From: Flaccisagitta enflata
Lineage: Eukaryota
NCBI GenBank assembly: GCA_965153355.1
Contig: OZ231126.1
Location: 868,001 to 932,000, forward strand
Length of the DNA stretch: 64,000 nt
Direction of reading: 5' to 3'
Of the stretch, positions 50,709-61,774 are shown in pieces; position 1 is the first letter of the stretch, and every line of letters begins with the position of its first letter. The translations under genes and the position numbers were made by a program. The notes below the pieces were generated by a model that was given only the letters and a program-made list of their open reading frames with translations, did no database searches and had not been told where the DNA came from.

Positions 50709-50792
50709 ATGGTGACTCGCTGCGCTCAAAGAATTCTACTTTTGTCTGAATCATTCAACTCCATGACACAAAGAATTATGGTGGAGTTGAAG
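50709..50792 (+). CDS. hoxX: HoxX-like exon 1
   Basis: ATG ... AAG|gtaagt; RILLLSESFNSMTQR. Confidence 0.88.
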
Positions 50793-59700: not shown

Positions 59701-61774
59701 CGTTGCATATTTCAATTTTGCAATCCCTATGTAAAAAGTGCATTTCAGCAAAATAGTGCTTCTCTTTGCAGAGCTCTAGCTCCTAAACCGTTTGAGATAC
59801 AGACCTGGGACTGGTCTTGAATAATGTTTTTTGAAAATTTTTCAATATGGTTCAACAAAAAATAGTTAAAAATGTTTTTTGTATCTGTTTTATTATCAAA
59901 TAAAGAGGTGCGGCTTTTTTCTTTTATTCGTGTGGTATAGGAGGATTAAAACTAAGTCTACTATCTTGGAAATAAATATACGGACACCTAACCATGATTA
60001 TAGCAGCTAAACTTTCATATCCAATAAAACAATGAAAGTAGATCCATAAACTATGACAAAAAATCTTCCATTCAAGACCAAGCAGAGCTTGGTAGCTCAA
60101 TTCATTTCCAAATGAGAGCGTTTTGAAGAAAACTGTCATTTTAGCAAAATCTAATTTAGAGGTTTTCAGTTCGTATTTTCAAAGGACAACCTACATTGAA
60201 ATAGCTTTCAAATCTAAACGGATTGAGCAAAATCATTCCGCTTGATCTCAATAGATCACATTTTTGACAAATTTTTTGAATGTGGAAAAAATTGAGGACT
60301 GCAGTCAATCATAATGCCCTGAAATTATCTAGTAATAAAAGAAAACAAAACTGATTCTTTGATTTTTTTGTTGCTTTTTGAGAGGCAAAGGATACACGGA
60401 TTCAAGATGAAAAATCATAGACGAATCCCATAAAAAGTAAGAACAGAAGCTCTTAATAGATCAAAATACCATATAATGACTAAAAATTTAATGATATGGG
60501 CATATACTTCATTCAGTGAGTGAAAAGGCTAACTTTTCTCCAGCTGTCCGTATATTTATTTCCAAGGTAGTAATTGTCAACTATGAACCAAAAGCATCTC
60601 TAAATCACTCACTGCCTGTCTTTCTGTCTTTCTGTCTTTCTGTCTTTCTGTCTGTCTGTCTCTCTCTCTCTCTCTCAGTCAAAATGGGCAAAACAGAATG
60701 GGGCGTTACTGTAATGCAAGCTGCAGAAGAAATGGATCATGGAGATATTTGGGCCACAAAAAACTTCCCGGTAATTTGATGAAAGAAAAAAAGAGAGAGA
60801 GAGAGAGAGAGAGAGAGAGAGAGAGAGAGAGAGAGAGAGAGAGAGAGAGAGAGAGAGAGAGAGAGAGAGAGAGAGAGAGAGAGAGAGAGAGAGAGAGAGA
60901 GAGAGAGAGAGAGAGAGAGAGAGAGAGAGAGAGAGAGAGAGAGAGAGAGAGAGAGAGAGAGAGAGAAACACACACACACACACACACACACACACACACA
61001 CACACACACACACACACACACACACACACACACACACACACACACACACACACACACTTACTCTGTGAACTGTGAAAAGGCTTTTGTACGGCCCTCGGCC
61101 CCTTGTACAGTAGATGTCGTCTAGACTTGGAAATACGGGGGAGCTCATAACCTGAGCATCAGTATAGTGAGGGGACTGATATTTTGCTTATTTAATGTAT
61201 AGACCCTAAGGGGTTGACGATGGGGTATGGCATCCCCCTACGGCTTACCCTAGGAAAAAAACTTTAAGTATAAAATTTTAGGATCAATCATTTTTTTTGC
61301 AGAATTTTAGCTTCATCCATTTGGCTAAAGTGCAAAACCAGTCTGGGATTCGGACCTGGAACCTTTGACTAAATAAACTGATCAAGATAAATCTGAAGTC
61401 AAGTGAGTTAACCGCTAGACTAATTCCAGAAGCCGATTTAACCAAACCAATTTGATTTAGTGTATTCAAAAGAATTTTCAATTAACAGAGCTGCCATACC
61501 CCATCGTCAACCTTATAGGACATAAGCATTACACATACACAGTTTCATTTCATTTGCACAAATGGTAATTAGGATATGAGGGTCCCCGTATTTCCAAGTA
61601 TAGACGACATCTACTGTATATCAAAACAGGTTCCCGATAAATCGACAAAAAGTGGCCTGTATCGCATCCAAGCTCAGGAGAGTGCCGTTGAAGCAGTTAA
61701 AGATGCGCTAACCAATTTCCAAGATGGTTTCTTCCAACCTCGGGTTCTGTCCTACCAAGATTCAGACGTCAAAG
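50709..61774 (+). CDS. hoxX: Hydrogenase maturation factor HypX/HoxX-like protein, N-terminal formyltransferase domain (5 exons; gene continues beyond the window)
   Basis: Exons 50709-50792, 54471-54594, 59437-59514, 60679-60770 and 61630-61774 are all GT-AG and in frame: MVTRCAQRILLLSESFNSMTQRIMVELK ERKYDVFTRTGLKSDEMPGQVDQVNPDIIICPFLKSVVPSE VYSKKPCLIVHPGIVGDRGPSSLDWA VKMGKTEWGVTVMQAAEEMDHGDIWATKNFP VPDKSTKSGLYRIQAQESAVEAVKDALTNFQDGFFQPRVLSYQDSDVK. This matches the HypX motifs RILLL..SFNSLTQR, PDLIIAPFLK, CLIVHPGIxGDRGPSxLDWA, EWGVTVLQA..EMDAGDIWA and TKSSLYR. Confidence 0.93.
50868..51848. mobile_element. DNA transposon remnant with a perfect 8-bp TSD, nested in a GGCGTGTTTCTAG-family MITE (50802-52056)
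   Basis: TSD acgtatgt at 50860-50867 and 51849-51856; imperfect TIR CGGGGTGCAAATGA / CGAGGTGCAGACGA; contains the family-B copy 51293-51679. Confidence 0.75.
53235..54042. mobile_element. Foldback MITE interrupted by a family-A element (53373-53570)
   Basis: cactttgggcgtgcctcaacattactctgggttttt ... aaaaacccagagtaatgttgaggcacacccaaagtg. Confidence 0.7.
54471..54594 (+). CDS. hoxX: HoxX-like exon 2
   Basis: ctag|GAG ... GAA G|gtaagt; PDIIICPFLK. Confidence 0.9.
54600..55810 (+). repeat. Tandem array of about 8 degenerate copies of the 3' ~90 nt of HoxX-like exon 2 plus donor, spaced by (GGTCA/GATCA)n
   Basis: Copies start near 54650, 54782, 54962, 55103, 55265, 55445, 55615 and 55770; the first six end in gtaagt, gtaaga or gtgagt. 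Confidence 0.92.
55960..59127. mobile_element. About 3.2-kb element with ~130-bp terminal inverted repeats, filled with nested insertions
   Basis: tggcccatttttattacgggt...ggtactcgcgatttgaccgtaatatgcaaatgagatt (55960-56085) is the inverse of aatctcatttgcatattgtggtcaaatcgcgagtacc...acccgtcataaaaatgggcca (59000-59127). Confidence 0.6.
59437..59514 (+). CDS. hoxX: HoxX-like exon 3 (catalytic His/Asp)
   Basis: gccag|TT ... GCA G|gtaaaa; CLIVHPGIVGDRGPSSLDWA. Confidence 0.93.
60679..60770 (+). CDS. hoxX: HoxX-like exon 4 (catalytic Asp)
   Basis: ctcag|TC ... CCG|gtaatt; EWGVTVMQAAEEMDHGDIWA. Confidence 0.93.
61108..61616. mobile_element. TA-flanked MITE with CAGTAGAT-family TIRs but a different interior
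   Basis: TA|CAGTAGATGTCGTCTAGACTTGGAAATACGGGG ... CCCCGTATTTCCAAGTATAGACGACATCTACTG|TA. Confidence 0.8.
61630..61774 (+). CDS. hoxX: HoxX-like exon 5
   Basis: aacag|GTT ... AAA G|gtaaca; TKSGLYR...AVEAV. Confidence 0.9.

Follow-up and report, generated by a model that had tools for sequence, protein, structure and literature searches.

In a 64,000-nucleotide (nt) stretch of the Flaccisagitta enflata genome (contig OZ231126.1, positions 868,001 to 932,000 of the forward strand; hereafter, the window), we analyzed a split gene related to HypX/HoxX. HypX is the aerobic source of the carbon monoxide (CO) ligand of [NiFe]-hydrogenase and is known only in that role, while to our knowledge eukaryotes have no [NiFe]-hydrogenase. 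An initial annotation, made from the sequence, had proposed that five GT-AG exons join in frame into a sequence of 174 amino acids (aa). Five plus-strand exons between positions 50709 and 61774 reproduced this model base for base, with consistent borders and phases (Table 1). All internal exon borders are AG/GT, the phases are 0, 1, 1, 0, and 1, the ten splice dinucleotides are canonical, and each of the five exons is open. Introns 1 to 4 measure 3678, 4842, 1164, and 859 nt. The initiating ATG of exon 1 has A at -3 and G at +4, with an in-frame stop 48 nt upstream. Joined, the exons amount to 523 nt, or 174 codons and one extra nucleotide, so the frame stays open beyond exon 5.

A hidden Markov model (HMM) built from 60 full-length HypX proteins (572 positions) was run on all stop-to-stop six-frame translations of the window. 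Significant matches were found solely at the five exons and at partial copies of exon 2, which are described below. The exon matches are colinear, lie on one strand, and span HMM positions 2 to 172, with E values for single exons from 4.9e-5 to 3e-16, an arrangement that chance does not explain. A second profile, made from 18 full-length eukaryotic homologues, gave the same result. In tblastn, exon 1 was 71% identical to aa 2 to 22 of Cupriavidus necator HypX. The spliced peptide (aa 8 to 174) aligned with aa 2 to 169 of bacterial HypX without large gaps, at 44 to 50% identity (E ~1e-55). Its best-scoring match was the bacterial protein P0005 (177 bits, 49.7% identity); the highest identities over the full span came from two members of the eukaryote clade discussed below, P0137 (52.3%) and P0134 (52.1%), as compared to a bacterial maximum of 50.3%.

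Enzymes that use N10-formyltetrahydrofolate (N10-formyl-THF) share the Formyl_trans_N fold, and the open reading frame (ORF) of exon 4 matched that Pfam family (PF00551) with an E value of 3.5e-5 and 24.1 bits, slightly below the cut-off of 26.1. Another member of this group, such as methionyl-tRNA formyltransferase, GAR transformylase, an ArnA-like protein, or the hydrolase domain of an ALDH1L-type protein, might have been mistaken for HypX. However, C. necator HypX gave 153 bits against the peptide and a Mycetohabitans homologue gave 154, while in the same run Escherichia coli Fmt, ArnA, and PurN reached only 42.7, 37.0, and 34.3 bits. With the matches to HypX ranging from 153 to 177 bits and those to the three controls from 34 to 43 bits, the outcome that the initial annotation had set against its own proposal, best matches to ALDH1L, FMT, or PurN, did not occur. 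When the PDB was queried with a 48-aa stretch in the frame of exon 3 and around it, Aquifex aeolicus HypX alone was returned (five of five sequences at E<=10; E 6.5e-6). A protein search with the same stretch gave 3427 matches, and the names supplied by the source for the best 120 of these were all of the HypX/HoxX type: HypX/HoxX, "hydrogenase maturation protein," "formyltransferase family protein," "enoyl-CoA hydratase-related protein," "hypothetical protein," and an unnamed Gigaspora coding sequence. The usual Pfam set among these 120 was PF00551, PF02911, and PF00378. When exon 3 was compared with plasmids by tblastn, 51 records matched, HypX genes among them; the 20 listed matches comprised 13 annotated as "hydrogenase maturation protein," one "formyltransferase family protein," one "enoyl-CoA hydratase-related protein," and five without an annotated feature. 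One plasmid match was the gene directly after hypC-hypD-hypE on pHG1 of C. necator H16. Scans of exons 1, 4, and 5 singly against NCBIfam and a PDB search with exon 4 singly returned nothing, these pieces being very short. Furthermore, HypX carries Asp80 where the triad of the FDH type has serine (PMC6802093), and the peptide has an aspartate of the Asp80 type at this position. Together, these data make a mistaken assignment exceedingly improbable, and the exons encode the formyltransferase domain found at the N terminus of HypX/HoxX proteins, with the His-Asp-Asp triad specific to HypX.

The catalytic triad of Aquifex HypX was described by Muraki et al. (2019; PMC6802093) as His74, Asp80, and Asp109, in agreement with the numbering given in the initial annotation. 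Its claim of an intact triad with the same +6/+35 spacing was also borne out, as His80, Asp86, and Asp115 of the peptide correspond to these three residues. The triad columns are invariant in all 60 full-length HypX proteins. Tyr416 and Glu426 of the Aquifex enzyme, equivalent to Tyr439 and Glu449 in Ralstonia eutropha, were put forward as candidate decarbonylase residues, and mutation of Tyr/Glu led to a HypX-minus phenotype in R. eutropha (PMC6802093). The C. necator HypX sequence has H74, D80, D109, Y439, and E449. Of the 48 columns with a conservation of 90% or more among the 60 full-length proteins, the peptide retains 42. The six altered positions are L108M, Y160F, L162Q, R169Q, E172D, and L173V, of which four are conservative (L>M, Y>F, E>D, and L>V).

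Table 1. Features of the HypX-like gene and of the surrounding window (positions in the window; the HMM match column gives E values and positions for the HypX HMM)
Feature	Position	Strand	HMM match	Description
Exon 1	50709..50792	+	E 4.9e-5	aa 1-28, ends in phase 0; start ATG, first beta-strand RILLL, FNSMTQR motif; donor GTAAGT
Intron 1	50793..54470	+		3678 nt, GC 38%, GTAAGT...TAG
Exon 2	54471..54594	+	24-62, E 9.6e-7	aa 29-69 plus 1 nt; NPDIIICPFLK; acceptor ..aaactag, donor GTAAGT; sole complete copy
Seven partial exon 2 copies	54651..55808	+		exon positions 35-124 plus intron start; starts 54651, 54782, 54963, 55104, 55265, 55446, 55615
Degenerate eighth exon 2 copy	55758-55808	+		inside intron 2
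Exon 3	59437..59514	+	E 3e-16	aa 70-95; motif CLIVHPGIVGDRGPSSLDWA with His80 and Asp86; acceptor ..ttttgccag, donor GTAAAA
Repeats in intron 3	59588-59822, 59964-60574			covered by RNA contigs
Exon 4	60679..60770	+	E 1.8e-11	aa 96-126; WGVTVMQAAEEMDHGDIW with Asp115; acceptor (ct)n-cag, donor GTAATT
Exon 5	61630..61774	+	113-172, E 1.3e-8	aa 127-174 plus 1 nt; KSGLYR motif, end of formyltransferase N-domain; acceptor ..aaaacag, donor GTAACA
Start of intron 5	61775..64000	+		2226 nt; no more HypX-like exons; 109-bp tandem repeat, microsatellites
109-bp tandem repeat	61982-62441			intron 5, just downstream of exon 5; 4.2 copies, 99% identical
CD225 ORF	36843-37532	-		dispanin / interferon-induced transmembrane domain, E 9.6e-7, above Pfam cut-off
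Proline-rich ORF	37712-38011	-		starts MDSD.., PPPDY motif; precedes the CD225 ORF
132-bp satellite	15910-22000			~46-48 copies, 95-100% identical to one another
Dispersed element	51270-51730, 56490-57080, 40040-41340, 41519-41943, and elsewhere	both		translation ~ ..SPCVLQD.VPFGAAA.. or ..GRCPVEHRGTF..; internal 20-21-bp tandem repeats (51387-51518, 56622-56836)

The bacterial affinity of the HypX family is the sole point that would speak for bacterial contamination or an assembly chimera. Against this explanation, the frame is broken by four spliceosomal introns of 0.9 to 4.8 kb, which are rich in host-type microsatellites and dispersed repeats. The GC content of the exons is 46.3% (47.7% at third codon positions), as compared to 63% for two bacterial hypX genes. 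The window contains no N, has a GC content of 39.5% and an observed/expected CpG ratio of 0.68, indicating CpG depletion, and is dense in microsatellites and satellites. We found no hyp-like, hydrogenase, or bacterial neighbor genes in the 64 kb, and the nearest recognizable ORF carries a CD225 domain. The introns, the exon GC content of 46%, and the CpG depletion thus identify a resident eukaryotic gene, as the initial annotation had held, and contamination or a chimera is scarcely credible. The gene has resided in a eukaryotic genome for a long time. The CD225-domain neighbor, the CpG depletion, and the large introns with their many repeats make the animal origin proposed by the initial annotation plausible.

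The CD225 ORF is the sole other recognizable coding piece of the window; together with the proline-rich ORF, it probably represents two exons of one neighboring gene. The 132-bp satellite creates an open frame of 1950 to 2125 codons on the minus strand, which is a repeat artifact. An Rfam scan of the window returned no family.

Intron 2 has an unusual structure. It holds a minisatellite of seven additional tandem copies of the last 90 nt of exon 2, each including the donor and the first bases of the intron, with (AGGTC)n runs between the copies. The identity of these partial copies to the true exon is 82 to 91%, and every one of them lacks the initial 34 nt of exon 2. A donor-like GT is found in all seven (GTAAGT in four, and GTAAGA, GTGAGT, and GTCAGG in the others), so that the copies appear to form a row of decoy 5' splice sites. 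Two copies (those starting at 54651 and 55446) contain an in-frame stop, and several have lost conserved residues. Because the partial copies drift in this way while the true exon 2 stays HypX-like, they provide a local neutral control.

As a phmmer query, we used P0001, a 182-aa eukaryote-like protein that is 50.4% identical to the window peptide. Among 1.84 billion representatives, 1471 proteins matched at E<=1e-3 and 76 at E<=1e-30. The animal homologues named include those of the bivalves Potamilus streckersoni (KAK3588127.1) and Sinanodonta woodiana, Nematostella vectensis (XP_032233888.1), Hypsibius exemplaris (OQV17577.1), Owenia fusiformis (CAH1774694.1), and Trichoplax adhaerens (XP_002112030.1) and Trichoplax sp. 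H2; outside animals, homologues were named from the charophyte Chara braunii and the plasmodiophorid Plasmodiophora brassicae. The scaffolds that carry the named eukaryotic homologues are each 0.4 to 189 Mb long, and these homologues are therefore resident genes. The Nematostella protein is annotated as [quoted passage not shown] and that of Hypsibius as "Hydrogenase maturation factor HoxX"; with Trichoplax, they are examples of the HoxX-like invertebrate gene models whose existence the initial annotation had asserted.

The eukaryotic homologues look like complete enzymes. Formyl_trans_N, Formyl_trans_C, and ECH_1 were detected by Pfam in all seven that were scanned. In a eukaryote clade of 42 rows, all 42 have the His/Asp/Asp triad. 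At the two columns of the Tyr/Glu pair, 22 rows are partial and have no residues, and the remaining 20 all have the pair. P0134, one of the two closest relatives of the window peptide, is a 585-aa protein encoded on a 2.8-kb Logan contig. It matched the sequence of the A. aeolicus HypX structure over 554 residues (E 7e-116, 391 bits), as compared to 60 to 68 bits for Fmt and ALDH1L1 chains. What this analysis adds is thus a set of predicted full-length, three-domain HypX homologues that form a well-supported eukaryote clade and keep the catalytic residues in all sequences reaching the respective columns. As read from these alignments, the conservation of the full catalytic set provides new support for a real enzymatic role. 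The literature that we searched held no paper on eukaryotic or animal HypX, although the supplements of horizontal gene transfer compendia (for example, PMC13342648) might still list the gene; the main text of that 2026 metazoan compendium contains no mention of hydrogenase, formyltransferase, or enoyl-CoA. The window gene is a new, divergent, and incomplete example of a family that is already annotated yet apparently unstudied in eukaryotes.

Many eukaryotic members carry basic N-terminal extensions of 20 to 60 aa (Nematostella, 44; Trichoplax, 57; Hypsibius, 26; P0134, 33). In P0138, P0140, P0142, P0129, P0134, and P0132, the extensions measure 26 to 57 aa and contain much Arg/Lys but little Asp/Glu, a composition like that of mitochondrial presequences. 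We read these extensions as presequence-like, and given their basic character in many members, eukaryotic HypX may act in mitochondria.

Several further observations concern single members of the family. Chara braunii has three HypX-like paralogues close together on one 1.2-Mb contig (P0146, P0284, and P0285; GBG84726, GBG84729, and GBG84730), which represent a local expansion in this charophyte alga. In an initial tree, the protein of the fungus Gigaspora margarita (P0078) did not group with the eukaryote clade, and its model has gaps in the region of the enoyl-CoA hydratase (ECH). We also considered as a eukaryote marker a one-residue insertion before the KS.LY motif, which is shared with P0001 and Gigaspora. 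It was rejected, as the length of this loop varies among bacteria (17, 18, and 19 residues in 54, 17, and 27 of 98 rows, respectively).

The position of the window gene relative to the eukaryote clade was examined in three trees. A quick tree was computed from 194 of 283 proteins, namely those whose BLAST match spanned the model from aa <=15 to >=155; P0001 and Gigaspora, which lack the N terminus, were excluded. The eukaryote rows formed a clade (support 99), with the window gene outside it in a weak group. An LG+C20 tree was then made from 100 rows, consisting of 36 eukaryotes (after removal of six near-duplicates), 63 others chosen to span the quick tree, and the window itself; here too, the eukaryote clade excluded the window gene (99/86). 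In a third set of 66 rows (35 eukaryotes, 30 bacteria, and the window), from which ten long or compositionally odd rows had been dropped and in which the bacteria had been halved, the window gene stood on the bacterial side on a branch of 1.43, with a split of 100/97, and only 2% of the 200 bootstrap trees joined it to the eukaryotes.

Taken at face value, the bacterial-side placement in the two careful trees would mean that the window gene lies outside the eukaryote HypX clade and goes back to a separate, later acquisition from bacteria, after which it gained introns and a host-like composition. The window model, moreover, has no N-terminal extension. However, the approximately unbiased (AU) test did not reject union with the eukaryotes in either set. 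With 100 rows, the tree that unites them had a log-likelihood 9.76 higher than that of the free-search tree (p-AU 0.62), and with 66 rows, the constrained tree was only 1.09 worse (p-AU 0.48). The highest full-span identities are eukaryotic, as described above. In addition, the bivalve-like ORF P0121 leaves an intron-like sequence ~0 to 3 residues from the position of window intron 1, as judged via Potamilus P0127 from protein alignments alone, which we regard as a weak hint of possible shared ancestry. The alignment offers 174 residues of a long-branched sequence, too few for the trees to settle either placement or the old horizontal acquisition that the initial annotation had suggested. We consider a separate acquisition to be a serious possibility, though not a probable one.

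We favor the reading that the window holds the 5' part of an intact gene, whose product probably moves a formyl group to bound coenzyme A (CoA) and decarbonylates the resulting formyl-CoA to CO, with no hydrogenase as its client. For the window gene, we infer completeness, expression, chemistry, and a target of the CO. Several observations weigh against this reading. No exon matching HypX beyond HMM position 172 (bacterial model) or 221 (eukaryote model) was found anywhere in the 64 kb, and neither the Formyl_trans_C-like middle domain nor the ECH-like domain with its Tyr/Glu pair had a match there, including the 2226 nt after exon 5. These two domains lie beyond position 64000 or else are missing; the middle domain may lie there, as exon 5 ends with the frame still open. 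Exact-word scans of JGI metagenome contigs with the last bases of the window and with a word from exon 5 gave no match in either case, and hence no extension. In a word-index search of 5.8 billion proteins, no close relative was found (exon 5, three candidates and no match; exon 2, one candidate and no match), and the window gene sits on a long branch, with 0.8 to 1.43 changes per column. Together, the long branch and the lack of a close relative could reflect relaxed constraint. L162Q and R169Q are nonconservative changes at conserved positions. The window model has merely 7 aa before RILLL, in contrast to the basic extension of many relatives; a 5' exon may be missing, or the window gene may differ from its relatives in this respect. 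Last, the literature searched contained no published assay of any eukaryotic HypX.

The RNA evidence was obtained from the region between positions 59400 and 60790. The sequencing runs that share words with this region (9 of 10 listed) are mostly marine or seawater metatranscriptomes, and none holds half of the words. We aligned RNA from three marine metatranscriptomes and from one poly(A) raw-read run, none of them known to come from the source organism, and found zero depth over exons 3 and 4 and no joint between them. Given the origin of these four runs, the result speaks neither for nor against expression. The RNA contigs cover the repeats of intron 3 alone, mostly at 90 to 95% likeness and in some cases at 99%, and the single RNA joint is a 69-nt skip within intron 3, seen in one contig. 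The summed depth over these repeats is high in the three marine metatranscriptomes, and the repeats resemble a dispersed family that is transcribed in the source or in related marine organisms. The runs give a weak hint that the source is marine.

These observations could also be explained if the locus were a decaying or truncated remnant, in which the N-terminal exons alone survive, unexpressed, and the protein has no function. The lack of downstream exons in the window, of RNA over exons 3 and 4, the long branch, the two nonconservative changes, and an intron 2 that carries seven decoy copies of the end of exon 2, each with a donor, would all fit such a remnant. In contrast, all five exons are open, with ten canonical splice dinucleotides and matching phases. 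The whole triad and 42 of the 48 conserved positions have been kept at an overall identity of ~50%, and the true exon 2 has been spared the stops and the losses of conserved residues that its neutral copies have accumulated. The RNA, moreover, comes from metatranscriptomes and one unrelated-looking organism rather than from the source. We therefore regard a remnant as unlikely and an intact gene as the better explanation.

Bacterial HypX transfers the formyl group of N10-formyl-THF to CoA and then converts formyl-CoA to CO, as summarized in a 2025 review (PMC12134894). If the window gene is intact, its exons would encode aa 1 to 174 of an expected 560 to 620 of a resident, spliced HypX/HoxX gene, and a Formyl_trans_C-like linker domain and an ECH-like decarbonylase domain should be encoded beyond base 64000. 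The protein would carry bound CoA, as does bacterial HypX. Its tetrahydrofolate-binding N-domain would pass the formyl group of N10-formyl-THF to the thiol of CoA, and its C-domain would split formyl-CoA into CO and CoA, in a host that presumably has no [NiFe]-hydrogenase to receive the CO. That CO would be produced is suggested by the residues conserved in the relatives.

An intact enzyme might, however, serve a purpose other than CO. It could interconvert formyl-CoA and N10-formyl-THF, either to salvage or dispose of formyl-CoA from 2-hydroxyacyl-CoA lyase or from oxalate metabolism or to supply formyl-CoA, with decarbonylation as a side reaction or a detoxifying step; this explanation overlaps with the CO-producing one. 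We know of no CO acceptor of the HypCD type in the host, the part seen in the window is the formyl-transfer triad, and sources of formyl-CoA besides HypX are discussed in PMC12134894. In contrast, the Tyr/Glu pair is kept in all 20 eukaryote-clade rows that reach it, which argues for selection on the decarbonylase step in eukaryotes as well. Formyl-CoA handling as the main purpose is rather unlikely, and we continue to favor an enzyme that produces CO. More generally, the conservation of the five catalytic residues in every eukaryote sequence that reaches their columns argues for a selected use of formyl-CoA and CO chemistry that is independent of hydrogenase.

At the level of the family, we tentatively propose, as a possibility well short of probable, that HypX is an ancient and patchily retained eukaryotic enzyme, of which the window gene is a divergent member, and that it draws on the folate one-carbon pool to make CO or enzyme-bound formyl-CoA, requiring neither heme oxygenase nor any hydrogenase. 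If this is true, aquatic invertebrates, a charophyte, and a plasmodiophorid would have a second, unrecognized way of obtaining a gasotransmitter or a metal-carbonyl cofactor. The window gene adds to the family one unusually divergent, intron-rich example, which by itself is incomplete evidence and a pointer to the question of whether animal HypX makes CO.

Among known systems, the hydrolase domain of ALDH1L1/FDH and Fmt have the Formyl_trans_N fold and the N10-formyl-THF chemistry in common with the window gene, and FDH passes the formyl group to a phosphopantetheine thiol (PMC6802093). They are nevertheless distant, as Fmt aligned with the peptide at 42.7 bits and 24.7% identity, and the triad of ALDH1L1/Fmt is His/Ser/Asp as compared to His/Asp/Asp in the window. 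The eukaryotic HoxX-like models belong to the same family and have the same triad, with P0137 and P0134 giving the highest full-span identities. Their clade excludes the window gene in free-search trees (99/86), while AU tests do not reject its inclusion; an ECH domain with Tyr/Glu is seen in these models and a basic extension of 20 to 60 aa in many, neither of which is in the window model. A full-length HypX-type "hydrogenase maturation protein" with all of the H/D/D/Y/E residues intact was also found on a megaplasmid of Mycetohabitans endofungorum (L002:2297-4051). It lies between acetoin dehydrogenase and acyltransferase genes, with no hyp genes in the 5 kb seen, and may also work outside hydrogenase maturation. 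In contrast to bacterial HypX, the window gene has spliceosomal introns, a host-like GC content, and no hyp/hox neighbors or hydrogenase context, and the C-terminal two thirds are not visible in the window. Its N-domain is nevertheless colinear with those of A. aeolicus HypX (PDB 6J0P and variants) and of C. necator H16 HypX/HoxX (597 aa, encoded on pHG1 next to hypCDE), the latter being 47.7% identical to the peptide over aa 8 to 160, and the bacterial proteins and the window share both the HPGIxGDRGPSxLDW motif and the His/Asp/Asp triad.

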